Shown: positions 25,336 through 54,869, counted from the first letter of the stretch. The stretch: DNA of 64,000 bases from Candidatus Methanomethylicus oleisabuli (GCA_001717025.1 MAGU01000068.1:307-64306), one strand, 5' to 3'. Numbers and translations are program-made. Notes: generated from the sequence alone by a model not told the origin.

Positions 25336-26670
25336 ATGGCGAAATATTCAGATAAAGTAGATCTATACGACGATCGAGGACGTGTTTTCGCCTCTAAGGT
25401 TCCTTTAGAGGCTTTGAGTCCATTGCAAAACCCAGCAATACAAAAAATTGTCTCTTTCGTGAAACAGTGCGTCTCCGTCAATCTAGAGGGCGTTGAGAAG
25501 TCTCTTGCGACTGGAGCAGTCGGTGGCAAGTCATGCATTATTAACGGAAGGTCTCTTAAATTGGACCTTGTTAAGAATGCAGGAAGCATTGCCGATACGA
25601 TTAAAAAGACTCTCCAGGTCTCGGCCGACGATGATACCGATGTAAAGGTCCTCAAGGGTGGGAAGCACCTTCTAGTGAGAGTCCCAGCCAAGAGGATGAA
25701 TGCCGGTGTCGAATATACCACAGGAGCAACCTCAACCGCAGCGGCCCTCTGTTGTGCTATTGTCGACAACTTCAATGTTGGCATCTGGGATGCGGACTTA
25801 GTTCATGCCTCTGTTTGGGGTAGATACCCTCAGACAATGGAAATGCTAGGCGGAAACGTGTCTTCGTTACTATCCGTTCCACAGCAGAATGAAGGTATGG
25901 GATACGCTCTTAGGAACGTTCCTTGCGCACACATTGCCTTGATTACAAGGAAGAATGCCATGAACGCTGCAGCCCTTTCCTCAATAATGGAACAGGCTGC
26001 GATGTTTGAGATGGGCGATGCTATTGGCGACTTCGAGAGGCTCCATATTCTGGGCCTTGCCTACCAGGGGTTGAACGCAAACAACTTGGTATATGATATC
26101 GTCAAAGCGAATTCAAAGACCGGCACTCTGGGCGATGTAGTTATATCCACTGTGAAGAGGGCAATTGACGATGGCGTAATCAAGCCACTTGCAAAGGCGC
26201 CATCTGGCTACATAAACTACACGACTGACGACCTCAACAAATGGAACGCATATGCCTCAGCGGGTCTTCTTGCCGGAACAATGGTGACTTGTGGTGCAGC
26301 AAGATCAATGCAGCATACACCATCTGTATTCATCTACTTCAACGACCTAATCGAAAGGGAGACGAGCCTGCCAGGTGTGGACTTTGGCAGAGTTGAAGGT
26401 ACAGGTGTTGAGATGGCCTTCTTCAGCCATTCTATATATGGCGGAGGCAACCCTGCCGTATTTGCCGGCAACCATATCGTGACAAGGCACAGCAAGGGCT
26501 TCACGATACCGTGCGTCGCGGCAGCAGTAGCTCTTGACGCTGGAACAACCATCTACACACCAGAGAAGATCTCTGGCACGATTGGTGAGGTGCTGAGTGA
26601 AGTAGCCGAGCTAAGGGAGCCTCTGAAGTATGTCAATGAGGCCGCAGTAGCAATCAAGGGAGGAGTCTAA
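25336..26670 (+). CDS. mcrB: Methyl-coenzyme M reductase beta subunit
   Basis: Full-length McrB-like sequence of about 445 aa from [15 protein letters not shown] with a strong SD. The longer track ORF from 25252 is unlikely. Confidence 0.93.
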
Positions 26671-26671
26671 A

Positions 26672-27448
26672 ATGGCAACTTACAAACCACAATTATATCC
26701 TGGAAACTCAAAGGTTGCCGCTAACCGAAAGAAGTACATGGATCCATCCTATAAGCTCGAGAAGCTAAGGACCGTCAGCGATGACGATATTGTGAGACTC
26801 ATGGGCCATAGAGTCCCAGGAGAGGCTTACAAGAGCGTCCACCCGCCTCTTGAGGAGATGGGTGAGCCGTCTTGCCCTATCCGAGAGCTTGTAGAAGCGA
26901 CACCCGGCGCTAAGGCTGGTGACAGGATAAGGTACATACAAATGACCGACTCCGTCTACTTCACGCCGTTGACCCCATACATGAGGGCATGGTCAGGGCA
27001 TACAAGGTACCGTGGCGTAGACATCGGCGTACTCTCAGGAAGAGTTCCACTTGAAGCGAGGGAAAGGGATCTTGAGAAGGTTGCCAAGGAGCTTGTAGAA
27101 ACTGAAATCTTCGATCCTGCAAGGTGTGGGATTAGGGGCGCGACCGTCCACGGCCACTCTCTGAGGCTCGACGAGAACGGTCTGATGTTCGATGCACTCC
27201 GCAGGTTCCAGTTTGACAAGAAGACTGGCGAAGTAGTCTATGTCAAGGACCAGATCGGCGTTCCTCTGGACAAGCCAATCTCAGTTGGTAAGCCAATAAA
27301 GGAAGAAGAGCTCAGAAAGAGGACAAGCGAGTATAGAGTCGAAGATGTAGCCTTCAGGACCGACAAGGAAGTCATTAACTTCATCGAGCGGCTCCATATG
27401 CTCAGGACGGAGGCAGGCTTTGATCCGAACAGGGTCAAGGGTATCTAA
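26672..27448 (+). CDS. mcrG: Methyl-coenzyme M reductase gamma subunit
   Basis: 258-aa McrG-like sequence. SD GGGAGGAG is embedded in the mcrB 3' end. Confidence 0.93.
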
Positions 27449-27462
27449 GGAGGTAGCATGAA

Positions 27463-29133
27463 ATGAGCTCAGAGAATAAAATGTTCATAGAAGCGCTTCG
27501 CAAGAAATTCAAAGAAGCGCCAGAGGACAAGAACACGAAATACTACATCTACGATGGCTGGAAGCAGTCGAAGAGGAAGAGAGAGTTTGTAGAAGCTGCC
27601 AAGAAGGTTGCAAAGGAGAGGTCGATCCCATTCTACAACCCTGATATGCACCTCGGTGGAATACCGATGGGGCAGAGGGTACTGATGCCCTACAGAATTT
27701 CCAACACCGACGTATACGTGGAGGGCGATGACCTGCACTTTGTCAACAACGCTGCTATGCAGCAGATGTGGCACGACATCAGGAGGACCGTAATCGTCGG
27801 TCTAGACTCTGCCCACACCGTGTTGCAGAAGCGTCTTGGCAAGGAAGTGACTCCGGAGACAGTCAATCACTACCTAGAAGTGCTGAACCACGCACTCCCG
27901 GGCGCCGCAGTCATCCAAGAGCATATGGTTGAAACCAACCCAGGTCTAGTGTCTGATAGCTACGTCAAGGTCTTCACCGGCGACGACGAACTGGCCGATG
28001 AGATTGACCCGCGCATGCTGATCAACATCAACAAGGAATTCCCTGCAGACCAAGCGGCATCCCTCAAGAAGGCTATCGGCAATAAGATCTACCAAGTGCT
28101 GCACATGCCAACAATTGTCTCAATGACCTGCGATGGTGGGACCATGTCAAGGTGGGCCGCTATGCAGATCTCCATGTCCATGGTGAACACCTACAAGCTG
28201 ATGGCAGGTGAAGCCGCTATCGGCGAGTTCGCGTTCGCGGCAAAGCACGCTGAAGTCATCGAGATGGGAACACTCATGCCATGGCGGCGCGCTAGGGGTC
28301 CAAACGAGCCTGGCGGCATACCTCTTGGATACATGGCGGATATATGCCAAGGATCGAGGGTAAAGCCAGAAGACCCTGTTTGGGTTGCGCTTGAGTCAAT
28401 CTCAATGGCAGCGTTGCTGTATGACCAGATCTACTTCGGCAGCTATATGTCAGGCGGCGTAGGATTCACGCAGTATGCAACATGCACATACACCGACAAC
28501 GTCCTAGACGACTTCTGCTACTACGGCGCAGACTACGTCAAGAAGAAATACGGCGGCTTTGCAAAGACCAAGCCAAGCTGGGACCTGATCAAGGACGTGG
28601 GAACTGAAGTAACGCTGTACGGCCTTGAGCAATATGAGAAGTACCCGGCGCTCATGGAGACCCACTTCGGCGGCTCACAGAGGGCAGCGGTGGTGTCTGC
28701 GGGCGCAGGTGTTGCGGTGTCTCTGGCTACAGGGCACTCGACCGCTGGCATCAACGCTTGGTATCTGAGCCAACTGCTCCACAAGGAGGCGATGGGAAGG
28801 CTTGGATTCTATGGCTATGACCAGCAGGACCAGTGCGGTTCAGTCAACAGCTTCTCATACAGGAGCGATGAGGGTCTGCCGTTCAACCTGAGGGGCGTCA
28901 ACTACCCCAACTATGCGCTCAACGTAGGTCACCAGTCTGCATACTGTGGCATCGTTTCTGCTGCGCATGGCGGAAGGAATGACGCTTGGACGACCAGCCC
29001 GCTCATCAAGGTGGCATTTGCCGACAAGGACCTGAAGTTCGACTTCACACACCCGAGGCTATGCTTCGCAAAAGGTGCGCTGAGGGAGTTCGTCCCAGCC
29101 GGCGAGAGGGACTTGATAATCCCGTCGCACTAA
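27463..29133 (+). CDS. mcrA: Methyl-coenzyme M reductase alpha subunit
   Basis: Canonical McrA motifs: AKHAEV (methyl-His site), [13 protein letters not shown] (methyl-Arg site), GFTQYA (methyl-Gln site), [12 protein letters not shown] (thio-Gly, didehydro-Asp and methyl-Cys positions at nt 28813-28836), and YxxxxGGSQR. Confidence 0.95.
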
Positions 29134-29137
29134 ACAC

Positions 29138-29162
29138 ACCTTTTTCTTTTTTTATTCATCTC
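29138..29162 (+). terminator. Oligo-T archaeal terminator after mcrA
   Basis: CCTTTTTCTTTTTTTATT immediately after the mcrA stop. Confidence 0.5.
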
Positions 29163-29175
29163 CAGCTGATTTCTA

Positions 29176-29789
29176 TGCCTCCAAGCAATGGTTTTGAGTC
29201 GCTATCAAGAATCTTGAACATTCTGAACGCTCTATCGTCACTTGAATCCGCCGCAGACGCAAGAGAGACTTACCCCGAGTTTCCAAATCTCGCTGAGCAC
29301 ATCGCTCAGCTCTTCCTAGAAGATCGCCTATTCGACATACTTCCAAGGCTAGAGACTCAGCGGGAGTTGGTGATGAAATGGCAACCCGCCGTTCGACCCG
29401 CTCTGGATCCCTACATATCCACCCAGATCGGCGTTCTATCAAAGAACTTCGATGACTACGAGACGGGGCACTTCTTAGATTATCCGGACTGTTGCATACG
29501 ATCCTTCAGCGAACGCATAAGATATGCGCTAGACGAATTGCATGAGAGAGAGCTGGCAGAACTTGGCAAAAGAGGCGGTTCAAAGCCTTACTTCGTCACG
29601 ACTTTCGGATTCGTCCCATGCAGCGTCTTATGCGAGGAGTCCCACAGCAGACACCTGATAGCCTTCGCCGAAGATAGTGAGGTGGATGCGATGAGGTCGC
29701 TCGAGGTCGAGATTGCACGCGCCCTTCCCCACTCTCATCCTGTATATCAGGGAAGTTACTACGAGATTAGGTCGACCCTATTGAGTTGA
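29176..29789 (+). CDS. Cys-containing hypothetical protein directly downstream of mcrA
   Basis: About 204 aa from MPPSNGFESL. Cys motifs DYPDCCIRSF and VPCSVLCEESH. The track ORF from 28986 overlaps mcrA in another frame. Confidence 0.45.
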
Positions 29790-30540: not shown

Positions 30541-30567
30541 TCCGTCCCCATTATGCCTTATATGCAG

Positions 30568-30840
30568 TTATCCACCACCGCTTACCGTGCCGCTGCCGTC
30601 GGGCCTGCCCTCATCCCTTATCTCCGTAAGAGCGTTGCCATCTTCGCCGCCCGCCTCCTTTTTGGGGCCTTTCGCGCTCCCCTCCCTCTCTACTTTCGGC
30701 TCCAAAGAGCCGATCTCATAGAGAAGCCCTGTCGTGTCCAGCTCGGCCCAGATCTTGCCATCTAGCTCATGGAGCCTGATAACCTTGCCTTCGGTCCCTG
30801 TCTTGGTATAGATCACTCTTTGACCCTCTGTGACCTTCAA
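30568..30840 (-). CDS. Small hypothetical protein (90 aa, Gly/acidic C-terminal tail)
   Basis: Lies 27 nt upstream of the HAD gene on the same strand. No recognisable domain. Confidence 0.35.
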   Translation of the reverse strand: MKVTEGQRVIYTKTGTEGKVIRLHELDGKIWAELDTTGLLYEIGSLEPKVEREGSAKGPKKEAGGEDGNALTEIRDEGRPDGSGTVSGGG

Positions 30841-31099: not shown

Positions 31100-32035
31100 T
31101 TGCATTTGGAATCTCTTGCTCAGGTGATCTCGGCGGCTAAGAACTATAAAGGTCTTAAAAGGAAACTCGAGATCGGTGAGATCATCCAAATCCTGGGGGA
31201 GTCTGATTACGATGACGCCGGCGTTCTTGATATGGGTGACCTTAAGATCGTTGTATCCGCTGATGGGATCACAGAAGACCTCGTAAAATCAGACCCGTGG
31301 TTTGCAGGCTACTACTCGGTACTGGTGAACGTCAACGATGTCGTTGTCAAGGGGGCAAAGCCGATGGGGTATGTCGACGTTATCTCCGGGTCCCCAGAAA
31401 CTAGGCGAAAGATGGCTGAGGGAATTAAGACAGGTCTGGAAAAATATGGTCTCAAGCTCCTCAAGGGTCACACGCATCCTGATTCTTCATACGAGGCGAT
31501 CGATGCCGCGGTCGTCGGTATCGCAAAGAGGGTTGCCAAAGGAACCGATGCAAGACCTGGCGATAAGCTGATAATGGCGATAGACCTCGAAGGGTCCTTC
31601 GGAACAAAGGGCTGGGTGAGGTGCTTCGACAGCACACTTCACCGCACCCGGGATGACCTGCAGCTAATGGTCTCGACAATAGTGGCTGCCATAGATAATG
31701 GGTACATCTCCTCATCGAGAGACATCAGCGCCCCTGGGATACTCGGCAGTTTAGCTATGCTCTGCGAGGCCAGCGGCGTCGGTGCCACAGTGGATTTGGA
31801 AACGATCCCCAAACCCCCTATGATATCGCTCTCTGACTGGCTCATCTCTTACCCTGCGATGGGCTTCATATTTGCCTCTAAAGACGTTGCCATCCTCGAG
31901 ACTCTGCGAGGCGTTGGCTTCTCTGCAGAAGTTGTGGGCAACTTCACCGAGTCGAAGCAGATTACAGTCTCGATGGGAAACGAAAAGGGCGTCTTTATGG
32001 ACCTAGCACTGGAGTCCGTTTTTGGACTGCGCTAG
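31100..32035 (+). CDS. AIR-synthase-related (PurM-like) protein, candidate methanogenesis marker protein 2
   Basis: PurM-like N-terminal DDAGVLDMGD motif. About 311 aa, matching Mmp2 size. TTG start. Sits between the mcr operon and the ycaO-tfuA-A2 operon. Confidence 0.5.
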   Translation: MHLESLAQVISAAKNYKGLKRKLEIGEIIQILGESDYDDAGVLDMGDLKIVVSADGITEDLVKSDPWFAGYYSVLVNVNDVVVKGAKPMGYVDVISGSPETRRKMAEGIKTGLEKYGLKLLKGHTHPDSSYEAIDAAVVGIAKRVAKGTDARPGDKLIMAIDLEGSFGTKGWVRCFDSTLHRTRDDLQLMVSTIVAAIDNGYISSSRDISAPGILGSLAMLCEASGVGATVDLETIPKPPMISLSDWLISYPAMGFIFASKDVAILETLRGVGFSAEVVGNFTESKQITVSMGNEKGVFMDLALESVFGLR

Positions 32036-33625
32036 CTCCTCCCTCTCCTCTGGCGTGAAGAACTTGATCACCTCTGCGGGGCTGCCCATCTTGGCTATCT
32101 TTCCTTCTCGCATGAGTATTGCCTCCTCACAGGTGTTCAACACGAATCCAAGATCATGAGAGACTATGATGAATGTCTGACCGAGTTCGTTTCTTGCGGT
32201 CTTTATAGAACGCGAAACGTCCTGTTGCGTTATCGGGTCCATTGTACCCGACGGCTCGTCTAAGATCACTATTATCGGCTCACGTATGAGCACCTGCGAC
32301 AGAGCAACGCGGTGCCTCTCCCCTTCGCTGAGCTCGTCCGGATACTTCTTGAGAGTTTCCTCTATTCCGCCCTCTTCAAAACCTGCTGCTGCGAGAACGT
32401 TGTGCGCTTTGAACTTGGCAAACTCGTCCGGCAACTCCAGACCTATCGCGTCGGTGAGGTTCTCAAGCACAGTCCTATAAGGGTAGAGCGTATACTCTTG
32501 GTGTAGCAACCCCATGTAAGGCGTGGCCCTGCCTCTGCCTAGCGGTCCGGGCTCAAGCATGTTGATCCACTCGTCTCCGATCTTCATCTCGATCCTTCCC
32601 GAGGTCGGCGCAGTCACCCCGCATATGGCTCTTGAGAGTGTTGTCTTCCCAGCGCCGCTCATACCAATTATTCCGAATATCTGCTTCTCCTTCACCTCGA
32701 AGCTCACGCCATCTAGCGCTTTAACAACGCCCTTGTCTATCGAGAAGTAATGCTTCTTAAGGTCAGATACTTTAAGAATCGCCTTTCCAGGCTCTTTAGG
32801 CGCCGGGATCTCCTCCGGATTTAGCCTGCTCATAAATTTTGCAACAACGCTCTTCGTGTCGCCCTCGGCATCTATCCTGCCATCTTCGAGCAGAACCGCT
32901 CTCTCGGAGATCGCCTCAATTGCCTCGGGGACATGCGATGTGACAAGAAGCGTTGTGCCCTTCTTCTTCACCTCATCTATCAAGATGCCGTATATCGCCT
33001 TCGCGTTTATTGGATCCAACGTCCCTGTTGGCGCGTCTGCGAGGAGCAAGACTGGGTTAACCGCTAGCTGCCTGCCGAGCACCACCCTCTGCTTCTCCCC
33101 GCCGCTAAGGTCCCGAGCCGTGTGGATAAGCCGGTTCGAAAGCCCCATGCTCTTGGCTATCTCTATTGCCCTCTTGTTTATGTCACTCTCCGGCACCCCG
33201 CTCTTGCTCAGCGCCTCTATGAGATTCTCATAAACAGTCATGCTTCCGTAAAGAGCAAAAGTCCTCTGGAACATTATTGATATTCTGTTCCTTAGTGCCT
33301 TAGCGTATGAATCGTTCCTCCAAAGGTCTACCTCCAGCAGCTCCATCTTACTATAACATCTTGGGCAGACCTTCCCCGCCTTGCTGGGCCCATCTATATG
33401 CTCACATTCCTTGCAAATCGCAATCCTATATGTGATCCTTCCAGACGAAGGGGCATAATCGGATATGCCCTTTAGCATCGACAAAAGTACGGTCTTGCCC
33501 GAGCCGCTCCTACCAATTATTCCAAGCCTCTCCCCCTCTCCTATGGTCAATGAGATGTTGCTGAGGACTTCCTTTGTGCCGAACTTCTTTGATACTCCGT
33601 CAATGATGATGAATGGCTCGCTCAT
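32003..33625 (-). CDS. atwA: MCR component A2-like ABC ATPase (two nucleotide-binding domains, no TMD) with a Cys4 zinc-ribbon insert in NBD1
   Basis: Two Walker A sites (GRSGSGKT, GMSGAGKT), two signatures (LSGGEKQR, LSEGERHR), and a CKEC...CPRC insert. Start MSEPFIIIDG. Confidence 0.65.
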   Translation of the reverse strand: MSEPFIIIDGVSKKFGTKEVLSNISLTIGEGERLGIIGRSGSGKTVLLSMLKGISDYAPSSGRITYRIAICKECEHIDGPSKAGKVCPRCYSKMELLEVDLWRNDSYAKALRNRISIMFQRTFALYGSMTVYENLIEALSKSGVPESDINKRAIEIAKSMGLSNRLIHTARDLSGGEKQRVVLGRQLAVNPVLLLADAPTGTLDPINAKAIYGILIDEVKKKGTTLLVTSHVPEAIEAISERAVLLEDGRIDAEGDTKSVVAKFMSRLNPEEIPAPKEPGKAILKVSDLKKHYFSIDKGVVKALDGVSFEVKEKQIFGIIGMSGAGKTTLSRAICGVTAPTSGRIEMKIGDEWINMLEPGPLGRGRATPYMGLLHQEYTLYPYRTVLENLTDAIGLELPDEFAKFKAHNVLAAAGFEEGGIEETLKKYPDELSEGERHRVALSQVLIREPIIVILDEPSGTMDPITQQDVSRSIKTARNELGQTFIIVSHDLGFVLNTCEEAILMREGKIAKMGSPAEVIKFFTPEEREELAQSKNGLQC

Positions 33626-33709
33626 ACGCACACCGCAGAACACTTTATCTTGAAAATCGTGATATATAAACAAACTGAATTGCTGTTGTTGGGGGGCAAT
33701 AAAGACGCA

Positions 33710-34399
33710 TTATCTTGTTTCATACACTTTATTCTTTAGACGCGCGCTAACATCCTTCAGCACCTCCATCGCATCGATGCGTTTTTGGTCGACATGCTTC
33801 TCAATCATTAGTGAAGCGATCGTTCGGCAACGATCAGGCGGCATTCCCGTGTGTAGCGCTCTCTGGCATATCCTCATGGGATTCCTGAACTGGAACGGCG
33901 TCTCGCTTGCTGCCTTCAAGAAAGATTCCTCCTCCTCCGGCGTTATCTCTCCTGAATTTGCGAGCCCTTCAAGCGTAGCCCTTATATTGACCATCGGCTC
34001 TGAGATCGGCGCTAGCGTCTCTGGGTGGAAGACCAGCGCAACCTCATCATCCGATGATATCTTTCCATCTTTATACCATCTGTATATCTTGCCAACGCCT
34101 ACCATTCCGTATGCGTCCATCTCTGCTGCCCTCAGTGCTCCCATGCTTGATCCGCCCACCACTACGACGCCTCTTTCGATAGCGTATTTTATCTCCCTGT
34201 GTGCCACCGCATTCCGCTGGTAGAAGACCCCATCAATTAGCCCTATTATCTCGAAACCTTCGTCTGTAGCCGAAACTATGTCTCCCCTGCCGGCTGGCGG
34301 ACGGAAGGTTGCAGATGGGAGTACCCTGATCGCCTCGGCTATGGGCGCGCTCGGCCCCAAGAAAATTACTGCCCTTCGACGGCGCTTAAGCAACCCCAC
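33710..34399 (-). CDS. tfuA: TfuA-like protein (partner of YcaO for McrA thioglycine formation)
   Basis: TfuA-domain sequence of about 229 aa immediately downstream of ycaO. Confidence 0.75.
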   Translation of the reverse strand: MGLLKRRRRAVIFLGPSAPIAEAIRVLPSATFRPPAGRGDIVSATDEGFEIIGLIDGVFYQRNAVAHREIKYAIERGVVVVGGSSMGALRAAEMDAYGMVGVGKIYRWYKDGKISSDDEVALVFHPETLAPISEPMVNIRATLEGLANSGEITPEEEESFLKAASETPFQFRNPMRICQRALHTGMPPDRCRTIASLMIEKHVDQKRIDAMEVLKDVSARLKNKVYETR

Positions 34400-34408
34400 T
34401 CACCTTAG

Positions 34409-45094: not shown

Positions 45095-45099
45095 TCTCA

Positions 45100-45125: not shown

Positions 45126-45173
45126 AGCACCGCTCATTTTAACTGGTCTAGGTCCAGCCGCTTATGTCTTAAT

Positions 45174-45788: not shown

Positions 45789-46343
45789 CTAATCGAAACC
45801 AACAAGTATGGTGCCTAGCTTCGGGTCTTTCGTATCGAGCCCCATCCTCTTCTTTATGTAGCTGTCTACGGGGGGCGATGGGCTTCCGACTACCGCATAA
45901 GGCCCTAGCCTATCTGGCATCTCTAGCGGCAATATCTGAACCCGCATCTCATCCCGCTCCTCCTTCATTTTTCCCATCTTGTCCTTATAGAAGACTATCT
46001 CCCCGACAACTATGTCGCCCCTCTGTTTGCACTCTTCTATCTTTGCAGGGTCTATGACCTCCTCTCCAATCAGCTCAGATCCACAGGTCAACTTTATCAA
46101 TGAGCAACGCGGCCACTGCATAGTTCCATCTGTTAGTCCGCCTACCAAGTTCTTCCTCTTTAGCGCCTCCCGCACGCCGACATTGATGCCTTTGCATAAC
46201 CCCATCAGGACGCTATTCTCCGCCTCACTCTCGAGCCTCTCAATCTCCGCGCGGTCCTTATCATTCAACTCAATTGTCCGTATGATTCCTTGCATCGTGG
46301 AGAGCTCTTTCAGGACATCGATTTTGTAGTTATCTGCTGACAT
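45789..46343 (-). CDS. Hypothetical protein, last gene of the Mmp/A2/RACo operon
   Basis: 14-nt overlap with the upstream RACo-like gene. 184 aa with no recognised domain. Confidence 0.4.
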   Translation of the reverse strand: MSADNYKIDVLKELSTMQGIIRTIELNDKDRAEIERLESEAENSVLMGLCKGINVGVREALKRKNLVGGLTDGTMQWPRCSLIKLTCGSELIGEEVIDPAKIEECKQRGDIVVGEIVFYKDKMGKMKEERDEMRVQILPLEMPDRLGPYAVVGSPSPPVDSYIKKRMGLDTKDPKLGTILVGFD

Positions 46344-48222
46344 ATACTCTGACCACCTTGGGCGCCTTTATCGACCCTGCCGTTTCAGGGAACATATTTA
46401 GCCTGCTATTGGGCATATACATCGCATTGATGTACTCCTCAGTAAATATCGGCTCGGCCGCCAACTCAATGTACTTCATCCTATCTGCGACCTCTATAGC
46501 CTCGCGTCTAAGATCGAGCGACTTCAAGCATATCCGTGCGCCGGACCCTGCTGTATTCCCCGTAAATGATATCCTATCCAGTGGAACTTCAGGTATCATA
46601 CCGAGCACTCTAGCGCTGGCAGGGTCTATATAATTCCCAAACGCGCCGGCGATGATTATCTCATTCAATTCTGCCGTTGTATGTCCGCTCTTCCTCATAA
46701 GCGTCATATACCCGCCAAACATTGCTGCCTTAGCCTTTTGGATCTCCCTTACGTCATCCTGGGATACGACGATGTCCTCCTTTCCAGACGCTGTCTCCTC
46801 CTTCGGCACAAGCACAAACTCCTTTCCCATCGGCGTGACCCTGACTCCCTTGTGCCCTTCCACTAGTTTCCCGGACGTGTCTAGTGCTCCGCACTTGAGC
46901 ATCTCCGCTATGGCATCAATTATCCCTGAGCCGCAGATACCCCTTGCCTTTTCATCGTCTATGGTCTTGTATATTACCTCATCTTCTATGATTCTTACCT
47001 TCTCAACCGCCCCGTTCGCAGCACGCATGCCATTCTTTATATGCGCCCCCTCAAAGGCAGGCCCTGAAGCTGTCGAGCATGACCATATGCCTTCCCTGCC
47101 TCCAAGCATGACCTCCGTGTTCGTTCCGACATCCATCAGCAATGTCAGCTTCTCCTTCTCATGCAGCCTACATGCGAGGGCGTCCGCTATCGCATCCGCC
47201 CCGACGAACCCCGCAACGTTAGGGAGCACATGGACGTTTCCTGATGCGTTGATTGATATTCCAAGGTCCCTAGCCTTGATGTCATACGCCCTGCCCAATC
47301 CTGCCGGGTATGGCGCCAGTCCTAGGCTCTTAGTGTTGACCCCCACAAAGAGGTGGTGCATAGCCGTATTGCCAACCGCGACCATTTCGTATAGCTCCCG
47401 CCTTTCAATGCCTGTTTCTGTGAGCCCTTTCTCTATGAGCTCATTTATGCCATCGACTATTGCCTTCTGCACCTCGCCGAGCTCTCTTTCACCTTGGGCG
47501 GCGTAGTTGATGCGCGATATGACGTCCTCGCCGAACCTTATCTGGGGATTCATCATACCATCTGCGAATGCTATCCCGCCATCCATGAGGTCAACAATGA
47601 AGACCGCGAGTTTCGTAGTTCCGATATCAACCGCAACGCCAAAGGACCTCTTTCTAGTATCGCCCTCCTCGACCCCTATGACCTCTTTCCCTCCGAGGAT
47701 CACTGCCGTGACCTTCCAGTCGGCCCTTCTCAATATCGTCGCAATCTTCGTGGCAATTCTGTAGTCAAGCCTGACATCCAAGACCCCTTTTGAGCCAAGT
47801 GAAGAGTACAGTCTGATGTCATCCGCAACAGTATCGTGGAGCGTGGGCGGCGCGAGCTCAAGGTAAACCTTCTCCACGTTGCTCCTGATCTTGACGGGTG
47901 GCTCCTTACCCATTATCACTAGCCGTTGCCTGCCAACTCTGCTCTGGTCTGGAACCCTTATTGTAACGTTTCCCTTGACCTTAGCTAAGCAAGCAAATCT
48001 GTAGCCCTTCTCGGCCTTCTCCTTTGGGATCCTCTTCAGTTCAACATCTGTGATGGGAGAGACTTCCCCCTCTATGACCTCGACAAGACATTTGCCACAT
48101 AGCGACTTGCCGCCGCATATTGAAGCTATATCGACCTCGCCTTTGACTGCAGCACTCATGAGTGTCGTTCCTTCAGGCACCAAAACCCTCTTGCCCTCTG
48201 GCAAAAATTTCACTTCAAACAT
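46330..48222 (-). CDS. RACo-like ATP-dependent reductive activase: N-terminal plant-type [2Fe-2S] ferredoxin domain + C-terminal ASKHA ATPase (COG3894/DUF4445)
   Basis: CGGKSLCGKC...C ferredoxin motif. Long ASKHA domain (VDIGTTK, DVGTNTE, GICGSG). Start MFEVKFLPEG, 8-nt overlap with the upstream A2 paralog. Confidence 0.7.
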   Translation of the reverse strand: MFEVKFLPEGKRVLVPEGTTLMSAAVKGEVDIASICGGKSLCGKCLVEVIEGEVSPITDVELKRIPKEKAEKGYRFACLAKVKGNVTIRVPDQSRVGRQRLVIMGKEPPVKIRSNVEKVYLELAPPTLHDTVADDIRLYSSLGSKGVLDVRLDYRIATKIATILRRADWKVTAVILGGKEVIGVEEGDTRKRSFGVAVDIGTTKLAVFIVDLMDGGIAFADGMMNPQIRFGEDVISRINYAAQGERELGEVQKAIVDGINELIEKGLTETGIERRELYEMVAVGNTAMHHLFVGVNTKSLGLAPYPAGLGRAYDIKARDLGISINASGNVHVLPNVAGFVGADAIADALACRLHEKEKLTLLMDVGTNTEVMLGGREGIWSCSTASGPAFEGAHIKNGMRAANGAVEKVRIIEDEVIYKTIDDEKARGICGSGIIDAIAEMLKCGALDTSGKLVEGHKGVRVTPMGKEFVLVPKEETASGKEDIVVSQDDVREIQKAKAAMFGGYMTLMRKSGHTTAELNEIIIAGAFGNYIDPASARVLGMIPEVPLDRISFTGNTAGSGARICLKSLDLRREAIEVADRMKYIELAAEPIFTEEYINAMYMPNSRLNMFPETAGSIKAPKVVRVYVSR

Positions 48223-49891
48223 TGTCACATGTCTCCATGAATCTACCAACAACTTCTTTCGGCTGCCCATCCGATATTACTTTCCCATTTTTTATCAAAA
48301 TACATCGATCCGAGACCTCCTCGACGAAATCAAGCTGGTGGCTCACAAGCACTATTGCTGGCTTTAGCGTCTGCTTTATGCGTTTTAATGAGTTTGATAC
48401 TATCCTGAGCGTCCGTGGGTCCAGATCCCCGAATGGCTCATCGAGTATAATGATACGTGGCTTTGCAATTACGGCCAATGCAAGTGCTACCCTTACCTTC
48501 TCTCCTCCTGAGAGTTCGTACACATGTCTATCGAGAATCTCGCTGCCAAGACCCATCAGCCCCAAGGCTGAAAGCGCAACCTCCTTCGCTATCTCGGGGT
48601 CCTTGCTTCTGAAGAGCGATTTAAGGACCTCTCGATCTATTCCTATCTCCCTCAACTTTGCTTGGACCTCTGCATCAGGCATATCTGCGACCCTGTGGAG
48701 GGCATCGACTGTTTCATCACTGATTCCGGCCTTCTTTGCCCTTTTGAGCGCATCCTCTACCATTTTATAATCTTTGATTCCTACCTTCGCCGCGAAGAGC
48801 TCCAAGACTCTTGACCAGTATGAGAGGTCAAACTCTTGGTGAAGTATGCCAATCTGCCTCCTTGCGTGCATGCTGCTCCTCCCTAGTTTCTGTAGTTTGA
48901 CCCACTCGTCCTTGTAAATGACATTGACCTCGCCCGAGTCGGGCATCTCAAGACCTGCCAACATCCTCAATAAAACCGTCTTTCCAGCGCCAGAAGGACC
49001 GATGATGCCTGTTATCTCTCCTCGCCTGAACTCGAGGTTCGTATTATACAGCTCAAATACCTTGCCATATGGTACGAGTTTGTAGACTCTTGTAACATCC
49101 TTAAACGCCATTGCTACAGGCCCCTTCAGAACCGATTTTGGCAATGGCGGCTCCATCTTTGAGAGATATCTATTCAAAACGCCCTCTACGTCGCCGCTGT
49201 CCGCAATCCTGCCCCCCTCAATCAGGATCATCCTCTTGGCAAGAGCTCTGTGAAAATTTGGGTTATGGGAGGCAAATATTATCGCCATGTCGAGCTCCTT
49301 GTTTGCCCTCCTGAGTGCATCTATCAGGTCAATCCTAGTCTCTGGGCAGGTCATAGTGCCAGGCTCGTCCAACAGAAGCAACTTCGGTCTCCTTGCAATC
49401 TGCCTCGCTACTATCAGCCTCTGCTTCTCCCCGCCGCTCAGAACCTCCGACCACAAATCTGCCCTGCTGTCCAATCGCACTATCCTGAGTAGCTCCATCG
49501 CCTCCTCCCTGTGCTCCTCATATTCACCCTCGTCCTGAGGCATTGACTCCTCTCCCATTTCGACATACCTCATAGCCCTGATCACGTTATCCACTGCCGA
49601 GTCAGGCCATAGCCCAAAGTTCCTCTGTAGCTGTATTGCTGTCTTTTCTTGGAGCTGGATGTAGGTGCTCTTGGGCGAATCCGGTCTTACTTCAACGTCC
49701 CCAATCTTTATCGAACCACTATCAAAAGGCTCGACCCCCCTCAATATTCGCAACAAGCTGCTCTTTCCGGCGCCGCTGCCTCCCATGATTCCCAACATCT
49801 CTCCCTCGCCCAAGGAGAATGAGACGTCGTTCAAAGCCGTTATTTTGCCGTCAAGGTATGTCTTCTTTAGCCCGTTAACCTCAAGTAACAT
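48215..49891 (-). CDS. Second MCR component A2-like double-NBD ABC ATPase (paralog)
   Basis: Walker A GGSGAGKS / GPSGAGKT, signatures LSGGEKQR / LSGGEKVR. No TMD. Embedded in the Mmp cluster. Confidence 0.65.
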   Translation of the reverse strand: MLLEVNGLKKTYLDGKITALNDVSFSLGEGEMLGIMGGSGAGKSSLLRILRGVEPFDSGSIKIGDVEVRPDSPKSTYIQLQEKTAIQLQRNFGLWPDSAVDNVIRAMRYVEMGEESMPQDEGEYEEHREEAMELLRIVRLDSRADLWSEVLSGGEKQRLIVARQIARRPKLLLLDEPGTMTCPETRIDLIDALRRANKELDMAIIFASHNPNFHRALAKRMILIEGGRIADSGDVEGVLNRYLSKMEPPLPKSVLKGPVAMAFKDVTRVYKLVPYGKVFELYNTNLEFRRGEITGIIGPSGAGKTVLLRMLAGLEMPDSGEVNVIYKDEWVKLQKLGRSSMHARRQIGILHQEFDLSYWSRVLELFAAKVGIKDYKMVEDALKRAKKAGISDETVDALHRVADMPDAEVQAKLREIGIDREVLKSLFRSKDPEIAKEVALSALGLMGLGSEILDRHVYELSGGEKVRVALALAVIAKPRIIILDEPFGDLDPRTLRIVSNSLKRIKQTLKPAIVLVSHQLDFVEEVSDRCILIKNGKVISDGQPKEVVGRFMETCDNV

Positions 49892-49900
49892 TTTTAGACC

Positions 49901-50809
49901 TCACTGGAACATCGATGCGGGAAGAACCTTCACTAATATGTAGTCCCTCATCTGTGATCTCTTAATCATCGCGAACCCTCCTAGGCGCTTGCCATTAATC
50001 ACAATATTGCTTACTCTGTCCTTGTACTCATCATAGTTGAGCTTGATCCTGACGCCATCTATTTTTAACGTGACCGGGTTCGGCGAGAGTGCCTCCTTTG
50101 CCTCGGGGATCTGCCTCTCCACCTCGTCCTTGACGACCGTCGGCTCCAATACAAGCGGGTCTAGATCAAGCTCCCTGCGCCTCTCCTCTACGACCTTCCC
50201 GGCCATCTCAGAGACCGACTTGAGCTTGTTTATCATGTCCCCCGTCCTAGCGCGTTCCGGATACCTTCCGATCCCGCCGACATATCCATGCGCCCCCTCT
50301 ATGCTTCCAATCTCAGGTCCTCCAGTCACTATGACCGGGATGGCTAAGTCCTTGTAGAGCTGGGGTTTATACTTGACTAAGCAATGCTCAAAATTGCCTA
50401 GCGTGAAGACTGCAATGTCGTGCTCTTCTATCAGTTCCCTCTCCTTAGGGGAGCTGTGCACTATCTTCTGCCCCACCCCCCTAGAGAGCCCAATGATGTT
50501 TGTCTTTGCCCCGTGCCTCCTTAGGTTCTCCGCAACATCACATGCTGGATGGGGCAGATGGTGCCTCGACAGGGTCGGCGCGACAACTGCAACCTCGACT
50601 CCAATAAGTGGCGCCGGCGTGATCTTCCCCCTAACCTCGGCCGCCAACTTATTTAACTTTTCCAGCTCCTCCTCAGGAACTGCGAGATTCATTATGAGGT
50701 CAAGCCCAGCAACATTCTTCTGGACTACGAACCCGCCGACATCCTCAATGAATTCCGTGATCATCTCGTGCCTGTAGAGGCCGCCCTCGAAGAGGAGATA
50801 CTTCAGCAT
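49901..50809 (-). CDS. Candidate methanogenesis marker protein 7
   Basis: About 302 aa. Position between the Mmp17-like and A2 genes, as in canonical Mcr-associated clusters. Assignment by size and context only. Confidence 0.45.
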   Translation of the reverse strand: MLKYLLFEGGLYRHEMITEFIEDVGGFVVQKNVAGLDLIMNLAVPEEELEKLNKLAAEVRGKITPAPLIGVEVAVVAPTLSRHHLPHPACDVAENLRRHGAKTNIIGLSRGVGQKIVHSSPKERELIEEHDIAVFTLGNFEHCLVKYKPQLYKDLAIPVIVTGGPEIGSIEGAHGYVGGIGRYPERARTGDMINKLKSVSEMAGKVVEERRRELDLDPLVLEPTVVKDEVERQIPEAKEALSPNPVTLKIDGVRIKLNYDEYKDRVSNIVINGKRLGGFAMIKRSQMRDYILVKVLPASMFQ

Positions 50810-50810
50810 A

Positions 50811-51359
50811 TCACAGCCTCCATGCCGCCTCTGCTTGCCTCTTCCACTCTTCCTTTATGGGATCCTCTGCAGCAACTATTGTGATCTCGCCATCTTTCTT
50901 TATGACATGACGCACGCGGAACCCTTCGGGTATTATGCGCAATGCTAGCTCATTCACCTTTGATCCAACGTCGATTGGCTTATCGCGTATCTTTAGCCTC
51001 TTTACATCCTCTGCCTCAACACCATCGACCCTTATCTCCAACCTGCTGCCCTGCTCAACCCTGTCTCTCCCGTATGTTGTCCATAGCGTCTTGAGTGCGT
51101 CCCCAACGTCAACCTCGCTGTAGAGGGTTATCTTCACCCCGTCCATGCGCGACTCTATGCTCCCTAGATCTGCTATACTGTTCTTACCTGCGAACTCTTT
51201 GTACCTTATGCTTATTATGAAAAATGGTTCTTCTGGTCTTATGCACATCCAAATGCCTTCGACAGTGCCTGTAAGTCCCAAGTCCTCAACGGTCTTCTCT
51301 GCGATGTACTTGTACTGCTCCCCTCCGGTTCTATCAGTGGAATCGACGGTTGTCTGCAT
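50811..51359 (-). CDS. Candidate methanogenesis marker protein 17
   Basis: 182 aa, by size and context. Confidence 0.35.
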   Translation of the reverse strand: MQTTVDSTDRTGGEQYKYIAEKTVEDLGLTGTVEGIWMCIRPEEPFFIISIRYKEFAGKNSIADLGSIESRMDGVKITLYSEVDVGDALKTLWTTYGRDRVEQGSRLEIRVDGVEAEDVKRLKIRDKPIDVGSKVNELALRIIPEGFRVRHVIKKDGEITIVAAEDPIKEEWKRQAEAAWRL

Positions 51360-51773
51360 TCAGCTCTCACCGCCCTCCATGATCTTCTTAAGCTTGTCGA
51401 CCTCGATCTTGCGCTTCCCCTCATCCTCTTTCCCCTCAATCGCTGGGCTTTCCAGCGCCTTCGATACATTCTTCAAGACCTCCCTCTCCATAGAAAGCAT
51501 GTGATAGCCTGGCCTTGGTCCACCGCCCCTCTTAGCACGGCAGATGCGATTGTCGCCAATCTTGTAGCCCCTCTGCTTGTAAAATACCCTATTCGGATCT
51601 ATGGCCTTGAGCTCATTTATTGTTGCCATCACCTTCTCCTCCTCGCCCTCAAGAAGGAGTCCATAGCAAGTCTCTTTGTAGTCCACGTCCCCTCTACTTG
51701 CTACCTTCTCCGCGAGCATCGACGGCGTCAGGTTGGAATCTGAAGAGAGCACCACAAGGTAAGTCTTTATCAT
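51360..51773 (-). CDS. Candidate methanogenesis marker protein 6
   Basis: 137 aa, by size and context. ATGA overlap with the upstream gene. Confidence 0.35.
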   Translation of the reverse strand: MIKTYLVVLSSDSNLTPSMLAEKVASRGDVDYKETCYGLLLEGEEEKVMATINELKAIDPNRVFYKQRGYKIGDNRICRAKRGGGPRPGYHMLSMEREVLKNVSKALESPAIEGKEDEGKRKIEVDKLKKIMEGGES

Positions 51774-53332
51774 CGTTGCCCCTCCATTATGTATATCTCC
51801 TCGCCCTCCTTGAGCCCCCTCAAAGGCTCCATATTGCTGACGACCTCGCCGATAATGTTCGTTCCATCGAATGCCTCAGCAGTAGGTCCGAATCTGTCGC
51901 TCTCTGTGAATCTAATCCCAATCATTCCCGTGAACTTCTTAACGCTGTTGGTAACGCCTATCTGACCCCCTTTGACCAACGAGGTTGGTATGTTCTCGGG
52001 CATTAGCCCCTTGGCTAGAGACTCGTTGCCCTTGAATAATATCAGATCCATCTTAGGGGCAGAGAAGTATGTCTCGAGTTTCCCAAACCGCCGGAGTTCG
52101 AGGCCGGTGACTACCCTGAAGTACCTTGCAGATACCGGGGCATCCTCATTGTAGAGGCGGATCTTTACGATCTTATCCTGCCCTACGCCGATCGTCTTGA
52201 CCGCCTTCTTAGCAACGATCTCCAATGAGTTGCTAGGCAAATGCTCTACAACAATTGCAGAATCTGATTTGTCGCCCAGCCTCTCGACACTTATTCCCTG
52301 CTTTGCTAGAAACGCCTCAGCCTCGGCCTGCGTCTTTCCAAGAATGTCAATGCGCTCTTGGGAGGCTGAGACCGCGATCCTGTCCCCCTCCTCAGAGACA
52401 TCCGCAAGTTCCATCCCGCTTATTATTTGCCCCGCTATCGAATGGCTTGCGCTTAAAGGCGCCTCTGCCGTATATACGTATATCGCGCCTGCATTGCTGC
52501 CCGTGTTTCTAACGGTTAGTGTACCGCGGTGCCTCTCGCCCAGACCTTCGGCTGCCAGTGAAGCTAGTCCAACCCTGTTGTCAGATATGAACCTGCTTGT
52601 TTTGGATCTGACCTCCATCCATCCCTTTCCAAACACGTTATAAACATGTTCACTCGATGCCGGCGAGGCGCCGTCCAACTCTATGGTCATCTTGGTGATT
52701 AAGCTGTCTCCTTCTTCAAGCACATAATCGCCGTCGATCTTAATGACTGATTTGGAAGCCTCCTTCATTTCTATGACCGGTTCGATCTTGATTATTCTGT
52801 CGCCCATCTTCATGCTCTCTACGAGGTGCCTTCCATAAACCACTCTGCCTATAACGCCGCAGCCCTTTGGGGGGGAGTAGTTGCCTATATGCGTCTTCTT
52901 ACCGAAGACTATATGCGTGTTCTCGCTACTGAATCCAGATAGGCTTAATGCCACTTCGTTCTTCTTCATCTCAAACTGCTCATTTGAAGGTTCAAAATCA
53001 GTTGAGATCTGACCGAATACGGTCGCATCTCTGGTAGACCATCTTACGCTCGTTCCTTCAAACGATCTGAAATGCCTCCTCCACCCGTCGAGCACTCCCT
53101 GGCAATCTATCTTTATTATGAGCCTGCCCTTTGTAGTCTCTATGCTGAATAGGTCTGTAACCACCCTCTCAATGGCGACCTTCTTCCTCAAGGCAAGGAT
53201 GCACCCCCTGTCAGATTCACAAATCTTCTTCAATACTTGATTGACGGTAGTTCCGGTCGCAATATCGATGGTCTGCCCGTTTATACTTGCCTTCAATGGA
53301 TGCCATCCCAACCTGTAGTGTAGTTTATCCAA
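51770..53332 (-). CDS. Candidate methanogenesis marker protein 3
   Basis: 520 aa. First gene of the operon, divergent from mcrDC. Confidence 0.45.
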   Translation of the reverse strand: MDKLHYRLGWHPLKASINGQTIDIATGTTVNQVLKKICESDRGCILALRKKVAIERVVTDLFSIETTKGRLIIKIDCQGVLDGWRRHFRSFEGTSVRWSTRDATVFGQISTDFEPSNEQFEMKKNEVALSLSGFSSENTHIVFGKKTHIGNYSPPKGCGVIGRVVYGRHLVESMKMGDRIIKIEPVIEMKEASKSVIKIDGDYVLEEGDSLITKMTIELDGASPASSEHVYNVFGKGWMEVRSKTSRFISDNRVGLASLAAEGLGERHRGTLTVRNTGSNAGAIYVYTAEAPLSASHSIAGQIISGMELADVSEEGDRIAVSASQERIDILGKTQAEAEAFLAKQGISVERLGDKSDSAIVVEHLPSNSLEIVAKKAVKTIGVGQDKIVKIRLYNEDAPVSARYFRVVTGLELRRFGKLETYFSAPKMDLILFKGNESLAKGLMPENIPTSLVKGGQIGVTNSVKKFTGMIGIRFTESDRFGPTAEAFDGTNIIGEVVSNMEPLRGLKEGEEIYIMEGQR

Positions 53333-53417
53333 GGGAACAATAAAAACTGCTCGTTCGCGCGGTATGAAGCCAATCTTTTTATTTATCCGCTTGGGCTATT
53401 TAGCTAAGGTGCCTGCA

Positions 53418-53747
53418 TTGTCCGATTCTTCTGAGATATGTGAAATAGAGGTCATGCCTAGGCGATTAATGAGCACCGAGAAAGGCGAATCTCTGGTTTC
53501 AGCGCTCAATGGAGATGATAGGGTCGTAGAGGTCCTTATTCATGGTCCAAAATATCGTGATGGCAAACAAATTATAGGGCGTTTCATAATCAGGCTTGTG
53601 CCAGGTACTGCGCCGGAAGTTATTCTATCCTCCTTCAAGCCTACATTCGAGTCCACAATGCCCTTCGGGTACGATGTCAGGATAGGGCGATTTACAAAGC
53701 CAAAGCCGACTGTAAAGGATTACCTGTCAGGCAGAGTTAGCAGGTGA
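53418..53747 (+). CDS. mcrD: Methyl-coenzyme M reductase operon protein D
   Basis: TTG start giving MSDSSEICEIEVMPRRLMSTEKG... C-terminal FGYDVRIGRFTKPKPTVKDY resembles the McrD C-terminus. ATGA overlap with mcrC. Confidence 0.55.
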   Translation: MSDSSEICEIEVMPRRLMSTEKGESLVSALNGDDRVVEVLIHGPKYRDGKQIIGRFIIRLVPGTAPEVILSSFKPTFESTMPFGYDVRIGRFTKPKPTVKDYLSGRVSR

Positions 53748-54436
53748 TGCGGTTGAAGGAGTCGATAGGGCGGGAGGCGCAGATCGTAGATTGCAGAGAA
53801 TCGATGGGCATTGGGGAGGGCGGCGGGCTGGCACAGAGGGGAACGATATCTGAATCAGAGGCGTTCGAGGTGGTAGCCGTAGCAATGTCCCCCTCCAAAA
53901 GGCACATCACCAAGCCCGTGTGTGAGATCACTTACGGATTAAGGGAACAAGGGATCCGGACGAGCGTTCTCGTGCTTGAGTCTGGCTCCGGCGTGCCGCC
54001 AGAATCCCCGTACGGCGGCGCTCCTGGTGGATCCATGGCGGGGATCAACGAAAAAGAGATATTGCAGGTGCGGCGCTTCAAGATAGCCCTCTTCCATCTG
54101 GGCGGCATCACGGGTCACGTCGTGCACAAGGCAAAGTCTTTCTTACGTTATGCCGACATCCCTACCATCATAGTCTGTGAGGCACCAGTGGACTATGAAG
54201 ATTTTGCCAAGGTAGGCATAGTCACGCGGCTAGTAAGGCCACCGCCTGGAAAGGTGGAGGTCGCAGGAGTCATAGTGGACCTGATCACCGGCGTTGTGAG
54301 GGGAGTTAGTTGCCCTCGCGACAAGCTAAATGAGATAGTTATAAAAGTGAAGTATTGGTTGAGCAAGGCGAGTAGTGGCGAAATCACCTTAGGGGGCGGA
54401 TCGTTTGGCAAAGATCTTCATATTCCCGCCGAATAG
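53744..54436 (+). CDS. mcrC: Methyl-coenzyme M reductase operon protein C
   Basis: VDCRESMGIGEGGG, RHITKPVCEITYGLRE, VCEAPVDYEDFAKVG and GVSCPRDKLNEIV motifs match the McrC family. Confidence 0.75.
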   Translation: MMRLKESIGREAQIVDCRESMGIGEGGGLAQRGTISESEAFEVVAVAMSPSKRHITKPVCEITYGLREQGIRTSVLVLESGSGVPPESPYGGAPGGSMAGINEKEILQVRRFKIALFHLGGITGHVVHKAKSFLRYADIPTIIVCEAPVDYEDFAKVGIVTRLVRPPPGKVEVAGVIVDLITGVVRGVSCPRDKLNEIVIKVKYWLSKASSGEITLGGGSFGKDLHIPAE

Positions 54437-54869
54437 CCTCATACTTTACGATCTGGTTGTTCGAGAAGGCCACACCCCTCTGGGTCTTGGCGAAGAGGTT
54501 TCCAAGAATTTGGGCAAGCCTGAGATCGACTCGCCTCCTATGAACATAACCCCCGATTTCCCGAGAAGGGGGCTCAAATACGCTGCAATCGAAGTGCCCG
54601 CCGGCGTCAGAGGGCGCCTGGCATTGATGGGCCCTCTGATCGAGGATGCCGATGGCGCAATCATCGTGGACGAGTCCGAGGCACTGTTTGGATGCGCAAG
54701 TTGCGCACGAACAAACGAATTTCTGCTCTATCTGATCAAAAGGAGGGGCATTCCAAGCATTCATGTTCCATATCCTAAGGATGAAGCAGACGCCAAAATA
54801 ATGGTATACAAAATCAAGTCTTTCCTGAAGAATATGGGTGAAAAAGATGGTAAGCCTAACAATAGCTGA
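54405..54869 (+). CDS. Hypothetical 154-aa protein co-operonic with mcrDC (possible methanogenesis marker, e.g. Mmp5-sized)
   Basis: 32-nt overlap with the mcrC 3' end. CASCAR motif. Confidence 0.4.
   Translation: MAKIFIFPPNSLILYDLVVREGHTPLGLGEEVSKNLGKPEIDSPPMNITPDFPRRGLKYAAIEVPAGVRGRLALMGPLIEDADGAIIVDESEALFGCASCARTNEFLLYLIKRRGIPSIHVPYPKDEADAKIMVYKIKSFLKNMGEKDGKPNNS

Follow-up and report, generated by a model that had tools for sequence, protein, structure and literature searches.

Organization of the methyl-coenzyme M reductase genes and their helper genes in a Methanomethylicia genome

The MCR genes and their helper genes in the window

The 64-kb stretch of DNA analyzed in this study (Candidatus Methanomethylicus oleisabuli, GCA_001717025.1, MAGU01000068.1:307-64306; referred to as the window) encodes methyl-coenzyme M reductase (MCR) together with its helper proteins. 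The genes form three groups (Table 1): the structural genes mcrBGA; a cluster of the methanogenesis marker (mmp) gene mmp15 with ycaO, tfuA and the gene for component A2; and, 24 kb away, a divergent pair of units in which a short mcrD, mcrC, mmp5 and a winged helix-turn-helix (wHTH) gene lie opposite mmp3, mmp6, mmp17, mmp7 and genes for an A2 homolog, a RACo-like protein and a 184-residue open reading frame (ORF) product. This is very probably the standard organization of MCR and helper genes in the class Methanomethylicia, and the split of the MCR genes that it contains is an already known, class-typical layout. Gene identities were judged by Pfam gathering scores and NCBIfam curated cut-offs. 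For comparison, a McrC alignment scan with one genome per species yielded 80 loci, which were annotated using the window proteins as phmmer queries.

All five MCR Pfam domains of McrB, McrG and McrA scored far above their gathering scores. As an earlier note on this DNA had stated, the three structural genes are contiguous with neither mcrD nor mcrC inside: no such gene was found between mcrB and mcrG, where a single nucleotide separates the mcrB stop (26670) from the mcrG start (26672), and the canonical mcrBDCGA order with D and C between B and G is absent from the window. The spacers, previously given as 2-15 nucleotides, measure 1 nucleotide (mcrB-mcrG) and 14 nucleotides (mcrG-mcrA). The Shine-Dalgarno (SD) sequence of mcrG, GGGAGGAG, lies within the 3' end of mcrB, and that of mcrA, GGAGGT, is located in the mcrG-mcrA spacer. 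A terminator had also been placed after mcrA; a T5-C-T7 tract at this position fits the proposal, but a scan for bacterial-type terminators and promoters detected no hairpin terminator 3' of mcrA. Since the tract occurs only once in the 64-kb window and in none of 100 shuffles, it can reasonably be taken for an archaeal oligo-T terminator and probably acts as such for mcrBGA.

The window McrA is 87% identical to that of Candidatus Methanosuratincola subterraneus and 94% identical to a metagenomic protein, the next matches being from Nezhaarchaeales, Archaeoglobi, Korarchaeia and then classical methanogens at 64-69%. The window derives from a Methanosuratincola-like genome of the Methanomethylicia (Verstraetearchaeota). 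By its sequence, McrA is an ordinary methane-type MCR subunit of this class, because its Pfam domains pass and it is nearer to the solved MCR I structures (about 860 bits; PDB 1E6V, 860) than to ethyl-coenzyme M reductase (529 bits).

The plus-strand unit mcrD-mcrC-mmp5-wHTH is located 24 kb from mcrBGA. When the products of 53418-54436 were compared with the hidden Markov models for McrD and McrC, McrC passed TIGR03264 and McrD passed Pfam MCR_D but failed TIGR03260. The previous identification of mcrC was borne out, its product scoring 284.6 bits with the McrC model versus only 25.8 bits with that of the Mmp7 paralog, and being 100% identical to the public protein P0121. The junction of mcrD and mcrC reads GTGATG instead of the ATGA reported before, an overlap of 4 nucleotides from the GTG or of 1 nucleotide from the ATG. 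Downstream, mmp5 overlaps mcrC by 32 nucleotides and the wHTH gene overlaps the end of mmp5. Translational coupling within each unit was supported. The overlapping 154-residue ORF that the earlier note had left as X is present and could be identified as Mmp5, but it is not the last gene: it is followed by the gene for a putative winged-helix regulator, which is found 3' of mmp5 in 11 of the 14 Methanomethylicia loci.

Support for the TTG start of mcrD at 53418, as originally proposed, came from homology upstream of the public start and from alignment with relatives, whose starts at this position are ATG or TTG; the codon is preceded by an SD-like AAGGTG. Among 15 sequences anchored on a conserved McrD motif, the start codon was at a fixed position with an SD-like AGGTG or TAGTGATCC, a proximal TATA-like box and a distal A/T-rich box. 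In 14 loci, the two A/T-rich boxes and the SD-like element were at constant spacing to the mcrD start, and the distal box was at TATA distance from the mmp3 start in compact spacers. The mmp3 start context GCATCCATTG is common to the window and to locus L001, whose ORF begins there, and TTG 53296 is the probable start of mmp3. With this codon the mmp3-mcrD spacer spans 121 nucleotides, as opposed to 85 nucleotides with TTG 53332. The shared promoter region described previously is consistent with the back-to-back boxes, but its size of 30-85 bp becomes 85 or 121 nucleotides depending on the mmp3 start. Transcription of the two divergent units probably begins at TATA boxes placed back to back in the spacer of about 121 bp, and co-regulation via a shared bidirectional promoter region, predicted from the arrangement of the A/T-rich boxes, is plausible. 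The winged-helix protein encoded at 54847-55353 is a candidate regulator of this region. In the metagenome-assembled genome (MAG) WYZ-LMO10 (L011 7965-8795) the mmp3-mcrD spacer has grown to about 830 bp versus 45-280 bp in the others.

Table 1. Features of the window, with the evidence for each assignment (scores in bits; residues, amino acids)
Feature	Coordinates	Strand	Evidence and remarks
mcrB (MCR beta subunit)	25336..26670	+	Pfam MCR_beta_N 253.7 bits, MCR_beta 400.8 bits; ATG 25336 preceded by SD GAGGAG
mcrG (MCR gamma subunit)	26672..27448	+	Pfam MCR_gamma 404.3 bits
mcrA (MCR alpha subunit)	27463..29133	+	Pfam MCR_alpha_N 482.7 bits, MCR_alpha 217.1 bits
T5-C-T7 tract, probable archaeal oligo-T terminator of mcrBGA	29141..29153	+	Starts 8 nucleotides past the mcrA stop
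DUF483 gene	29175..29789	+	Pfam DUF483 99.2 bits; same place in Ca. M. subterraneus (L089)
AIR-synthase-related, methanogenesis-marker-2-like gene	31100..32035	+	TIGR03267 249.7 bits, under cut-off 365; Pfam AIRS and AIRS_C
Component A2 (AtwA)	32003..33673	-	TIGR03269 733.8 bits versus cut-off 517; final gene of mmp15-ycaO-tfuA-A2
tfuA (McrA thioglycine formation)	33710..34399	-	NF033432 239 bits versus 235.2
ycaO, methanogenesis marker 1 (McrA thioglycine formation)	34409..35644	-	TIGR03266 440.5 bits versus 365
Methanogenesis marker 15 (BcrAD/BadFG-type ATPase)	35645..36883	-	TIGR03286 624.5 bits versus 455.75
Conserved 184-residue ORF, final gene of minus-strand operon	45789..46343	-	No family match
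RACo-type reductive activase (2Fe-2S ferredoxin domain and ASKHA ATPase)	46330..48270	-	Pfam Fer2, RACo_linker, Raco_middle and RACo_C_ter over gathering score
Double-ABC ATPase, A2 homolog without zinc-binding motif	48215..49891	-	TIGR03269 315.5 bits, under 517.1
Methanogenesis marker 7 (McrC paralog)	49901..50809	-	TIGR03274 395.6 bits versus 349.15
Methanogenesis marker 17	50811..51359	-	TIGR03291 117.4 bits versus 67.1
Methanogenesis marker 6	51360..51773	-	TIGR03272 132.2 bits versus 125.95
Methanogenesis marker 3 (Mmp3)	51770..53296	-	TIGR03268 501.5 bits versus 234.45, aligned from ORF residue 16; longest ORF to 53332
Divergent intergenic region with A/T-rich TATA-like boxes	53297..53417	.	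GTTTTTATTG on minus strand; TTTTTATTTAT and CTATTTAG on plus strand; A/T boxes at 53346-53355 (minus strand) and 53373-53383 (plus strand); putative promoters
mcrD, short form (109 residues, TTG start)	53418..53747	+	Pfam MCR_D 41.1 bits versus 25
mcrC	53747..54436	+	TIGR03264 284.6 bits versus cut-off 213.5; start GTG 53744, ATG 53747 or TTG 53753
Methanogenesis marker 5 (Mmp5)	54405..54869	+	TIGR03271 203.1 bits versus 140.25; Pfam DUF2112 194.6 bits
Winged-helix (ArsR/TrmB-like) putative regulator	54847..55353	+	Weak HTH_20, TrmB and HTH_5 matches, all under gathering scores

Component A2 and the tail of the divergent operon

Closer examination of the two A2-like ATPases placed component A2 outside the operon in which the earlier note had seen it. 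The protein encoded at 32003-33673 matches the A2 chain of the solved activation complex (8S7V_K/9H1L) over its full length with 586.6 bits and contains two Walker A motifs as well as a zinc motif, CKEC-X12-CPRC, at residues 87-106; judged by these features, this ORF encodes component A2 of the genome. The mmp15-ycaO-tfuA-A2 cluster is found 3 kb downstream of mcrA and recurs in the same order in Ca. M. subterraneus (L089). An N-terminal CXXCX12CXXC motif has been reported to separate A2 from a widespread homolog of the MA_3967 type (bioRxiv 10.64898/2026.03.18.712670). This motif is absent from ORF 48215-49891, which contains three cysteines in total, none of them N-terminal, and reaches 224.8 bits with 8S7V_K. 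Across the loci, it was found in 23 of 23 canonical A2 proteins but in none of the 16 orthologs of the operon ATPase. The operon ATPase was rejected as component A2 on the basis of its TIGR03269 score, the weak 8S7V_K score and the missing zinc motif, and is an A2 homolog instead. With the true A2 located in mmp15-ycaO-tfuA-A2, the MCR accessory genes therefore occupy three units, not two. The activation-complex ATPase is co-oriented and contiguous with mmp15, ycaO and tfuA, and thereby linked to the genes for thioglycine modification of McrA.

Markers 3, 5, 6, 7, 15 and 17 all exceeded their NCBIfam curated cut-offs. The divergent operon had been described as Mmp3-6-17-7-A2-RACo, of which mmp3-6-17-7 and the RACo-type gene stand and the A2 label does not; a 184-residue ORF follows as an additional gene. 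The A2 homolog and the RACo-type activase consistently occupy positions 5 and 6 of the mmp3-6-17-7 operon in the window as well as in loci L001-L013, L040 and L088. The RACo-like protein aligned end to end with the RACo of C. hydrogenoformans (3ZYY; 375 bits) and retains the 2Fe-2S cysteines and ASKHA motifs (CGGxxxCGKC and DIGTT); with the AcsV model it scored 485.6 bits, which is under the exception-level cut-off of 800 for orthology to the activase of the acetyl-CoA pathway. No Pfam or NCBIfam family matched the 184-residue ORF. In 13 Methanomethylicia loci and L088 this ORF directly follows the RACo-like gene. Weaker homologs (E 1e-16 to 1e-5) occur in Methanomassiliicoccales, between mcrA and A2 as well as between mcrC and mmp3, and the ORF may represent an unrecognised MCR-associated marker.

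The A2 homolog, the RACo-type activase and the 184-residue ORF form the less ordinary part of the locus. The simplest reading is that RACo reactivates the corrinoid proteins of methyltransferases and is co-expressed with other maintenance functions; no corrinoid-protein gene was found in the 64-kb window. It is rather doubtful, though conceivable from the gene order, that RACo, the A2 homolog without zinc motif and the 184-residue protein constitute an auxiliary ATP-driven electron-injection module for MCR, in which RACo would supply the McrC/Mmp7 clusters or Ni(II)-F430 with electrons of low potential. Our literature searches retrieved no paper linking RACo to MCR or describing the content of this operon. 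If RACo does act on MCR, its family would reach beyond cobalt corrinoids to a nickel tetrapyrrole.

The family of A2 homologs without zinc motif reaches into Nezhaarchaeales, Methanobacterium and Methanomicrobiales. In Methanobacterium ferruginis and a MAG labeled Methanomicrobiales (L086 6001-7734 and L087 6001-7719), the homolog adjoins genes for flavin reductase, Usp, rubredoxins, ferritin, peroxiredoxin and SOD, with no mmp gene, which hints at a link to oxidative stress. Between mcrA and the A2 cluster of the window, the DUF483 gene starts 41 nucleotides past the mcrA stop and beyond the T-tract. Together with minus-strand genes for a HAD-family hydrolase resembling the soluble domain of P-type ATPases and for a DUF2098 protein, it forms a trio (29175-30840) that is also present in Ca. 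M. subterraneus.

Conservation of the layout and of the short McrD

The comparison with close relatives that the earlier note had suggested returned the same split layout throughout the class. In all 14 Methanomethylicia loci, one of them on the complete chromosome of Ca. Methanosuratincola verstraetei LCB70 (CP186953.1), Mmp3, Mmp6, Mmp17, Mmp7, the ABC ATPase and RACo follow each other in one direction and McrD, McrC and Mmp5 (in 11 of them followed by the HTH protein) in the other. The same gene order was also observed in L088, a deeper lineage in which the identity of the ATPase drops to 51%. Around mcrBGA, synteny with Ca. M. subterraneus extends from the ABC transporter gene upstream past mmp15 to the genes for a GTPase and ThiN. 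Because the 14 loci and L088 have the same layout, mcrD and mcrC were not relocated specifically in this genome, as the wording of the note had implied; the arrangement is class-wide and has been tabulated as 'BGA // DC'.

Two alternative accounts of the split were considered, one technical and one historical. The window comes from a metagenome contig (ENA ERZ27315059 k141_297004), and since such contigs can be chimeric, unrelated contigs might have been joined, in which case both the 24-kb gap and the mcrDC/mmp3 junction would be false. The same junction is, however, present in 14 independent genomes, one of them a complete chromosome, as well as in L088. The housekeeping block in between is syntenic with relatives on both flanks: GTPase-ThiN-ThiD genes are found 3' of mmp15 in L089, and TIM and NadE genes near the RACo end in L088. 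GC content is even over 22-58 kb (0.47-0.55), and three independent assemblies, an 85-kb ENA contig and two Logan assemblies, contain the mcrC locus with an identical McrC protein. The shared junction, the synteny and the even GC content thus exclude an assembly artifact for practical purposes; these findings, together with the three assemblies, contradict the error that the earlier note had itself named as fatal to its reading, and we assign it virtually no probability. A recent lineage-specific relocation, in which D and C left an ancestral mcrBDCGA operon for a site beside the activation operon, has more in its favor: mcrBDCGA is the commonest order in cultured methanogens (PMC9081873), Korarchaeia (Methanodesulfokores) have BDCGA within the Thermoproteota, and the order D-then-C is kept at the second site. 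But the split is fixed in the whole class and in the sister order Nezhaarchaeales, and hence not recent. A D-C pair or C alone is also joined to mmp genes in Bathyarchaeota BA2 and Methanomassiliicoccales, and separate 'DC' pairs are reported for Hadarchaeia and Helarchaeales by Shao et al., who list the pattern only. The data are just as compatible with the reverse polarity, in which C and D first stood beside the mmp genes and the mcr operon acquired them later. On balance we consider the relocation unlikely.

The gene at 53418, annotated as mcrD in the earlier note, does encode a McrD homolog according to the sequence comparisons, yet in a divergent short form that occurs class-wide. It scored 39.7 bits with TIGR03260, under the equivalog cut-off of 100, and Pfam MCR_D, although over its gathering score, aligned only model positions 74-119. 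Searches against McrD chains in the PDB gave E values of 5e-8 (8GF5_X) and 3e-7 (8W33_A). A comparison by hhalign of a profile of 12 short forms with a profile of eight canonical McrDs yielded a probability of 99.5% (E 8e-23) for 104 aligned columns covering the whole length with one 28-residue gap. This gap corresponds to about native residues 51-78 of Methanosarcina acetivorans McrD, as aligned to a tagged PDB chain and assuming a 23-residue tag. In the published description of the M. acetivorans McrD-MCR structure, a large McrD loop wedges between the gamma and alpha-prime subunits; the segment missing from the short form maps to this wedge loop, and the C-terminal extension is missing too. 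A McrD without this loop would need to bind apo-MCR otherwise than in the M. acetivorans model. A single-sequence AlphaFold2 model of the short form, for which no alignment was used, had a mean predicted local distance difference test (pLDDT) score of 45 and a predicted template modeling (pTM) score of 0.33, values too low for the model to be of use.

The score below the TIGR03260 cut-off, the length of only 109 residues compared with 140-170 residues for canonical McrD, the missing wedge-loop segment and the 92-residue version in public gene calls, which begin the protein too late, could all indicate that 53418-53747 is a decayed remnant or an unrelated small protein and not a working McrD, leaving the organism effectively without McrD, like the anaerobic methanotrophic (ANME) archaea of group ANME-1. 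That is very unlikely in view of the Pfam and full-length profile matches and the retention of both conserved ends, E-I-E-x-x-P-R-R-L and G-R-F-T-K-P-x-P-T-V-x-D-Y. Moreover, mcrD invariably stands just before mcrC, with which it is translationally coupled. Intact copies of this short form are found in 13 Methanomethylicia loci and also in Nezhaarchaeota; such conservation at a pairwise identity of 32-66% to the window protein points to purifying selection. As it is intact in all Methanomethylicia loci holding the gene and in Nezhaarchaeota, the short McrD is, on this comparative evidence, a conserved variant and not a remnant.

The position of mcrC and mcrD next to mmp genes would reflect a grouping of genes by the complex or step they serve, which we infer from published function and conserved gene order. 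The basis for this reading is that McrC is part of the activation complex and that McrC and McrD act in trans. In Methanococcus maripaludis, cryo-electron microscopy and biochemistry placed McrC in one complex with Mmp7, Mmp17, Mmp3 and A2 that activates MCR with ATP (PMC12176620), and experiments reported by Shao et al. 2022 (PMC9584954) show that McrC and McrD act in trans. Through the split, factors needed in catalytic amounts might be expressed at another level, probably far below that of the highly abundant MCR. Several points weigh against the proposed organization. The true A2 and Mmp15 are encoded outside the operon adjoining mcrC, so that grouping by complex is incomplete. The 80 loci are the McrC relatives nearest to the query and an unbalanced sample of methanogens, and a review attributes a 'complete mcrBDCGA operon' to Verstraetearchaeota (PMC9081873), a loose wording that the genomes contradict.

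If the grouping by function holds, MCR helper genes in methanogens of the Thermoproteota would be organized by assembly and activation function and not with the structural genes; the split itself confirms what was known and adds nothing new. Heterologous expression of these MCRs requires a helper set taken from three loci, and the gene next to mmp7 that is often annotated as 'A2' is not A2. Methanosuratincola now being cultured, the corrected map provides targets in the true A2 with mmp15-ycaO-tfuA, the A2 homolog with RACo, and the short McrD.

Comparison with known systems

Shao et al. 2022 (PMC9584954) sorted mcr operons into three main types, which carry a strong phylogenetic signal. Their Supplementary Data 1 gives 'BGA // DC' for every Methanomethylicales genome, among them Methanosuratus petracarbonis, M. 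subterraneum, Methanomethylicus spp. and WYZ-LMO10/11, as well as 'BGA // C // D' for Nezhaarchaeales and separate 'DC' pairs in Bathyarchaeia BA2, Hadarchaeia and Helarchaeales. With a contiguous mcrBGA and a separate mcrD-mcrC pair, often on the same contig, the window matches the first of these patterns exactly. The table records the pattern only and is silent on mmp5 and the regulator after D-C and on the divergence from mmp3-6-17-7-(A2 homolog)-RACo.

The activation operon of M. acetivorans comprises A2, Mmp5, Mmp6, Mmp17, Mmp7, Mmp3 and Mmp15 (bioRxiv 10.64898/2026.03.18.712670) and is read about 40-fold less than mcrBDCGA. This operon and the M. maripaludis complex (PDB 8S7V/9H1L) involve the same protein families as the window, with McrC as the partner of Mmp7, Mmp17, Mmp3 and A2. 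In contrast to M. acetivorans, the window distributes the seven genes over three units, A2 and Mmp15 being encoded with ycaO-tfuA and Mmp5 with mcrDC, and its mmp3-6-17-7 unit carries the MA_3967-type A2 homolog, the RACo-type activase and the 184-residue ORF.

Methanomassiliicoccales were described with mcrBDGA and a cluster atwA-mcrC-mmp3-mmp6-mmp5-mmp15-mmp17-mmp7 (Borrel et al. 2014, BMC Genomics, PMC4153887), and the order A2, McrC, Mmp3, Mmp6, Mmp5, Mmp15, Mmp17, Mmp7 was confirmed here in 23 loci of this group. As in the window, mcrC is separated from the mcr operon and lies among the same marker genes. Unlike in the window, mcrD stands between mcrB and mcrG, mcrC points in the same direction as the mmp genes and follows an A2 with zinc motif, mmp15 is inside the cluster, a RACo gene is lacking and the whole set is contained within about 16 kb of mcrA.

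The earlier note had also found the locus reminiscent of non-canonical MCR lineages. This applies to the BGA order, which is common to ANME-1 and alkane-type MCRs, but not to McrA, which is of the ordinary methane type. ANME-1 shares with the window a structural operon BGA without D and C and an mcrC located elsewhere, but has no mcrD and a divergent methane-oxidizing MCR, whereas the window keeps the short mcrD and a standard methanogen-type McrA.

In about 35 Methanotrichaceae/Methanosarcinales loci (L014-L079), all from Methanothrix-type genomes, the McrC found by the scan stands alone: the flanking 10 kb on both sides contain neither mcr nor mmp genes. Bathyarchaeota BA2 resemble the window in that mcrD-mcrC is joined to activation genes apart from mcrA and BG. 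Their string mmp3-mmp6-mmp5-mmp15-mmp17-mmp7-mcrD-mcrC-DUF2099 differs in being co-directional throughout, with a full-length McrD (167 residues), with mmp5 and mmp15 inside, and with neither A2 homolog nor RACo. In Nezhaarchaeota (L056) and a Thermoprotei MAG (L050), McrC is divergent from Mmp3-Mmp6-Mmp17, which is the same junction as in the window.

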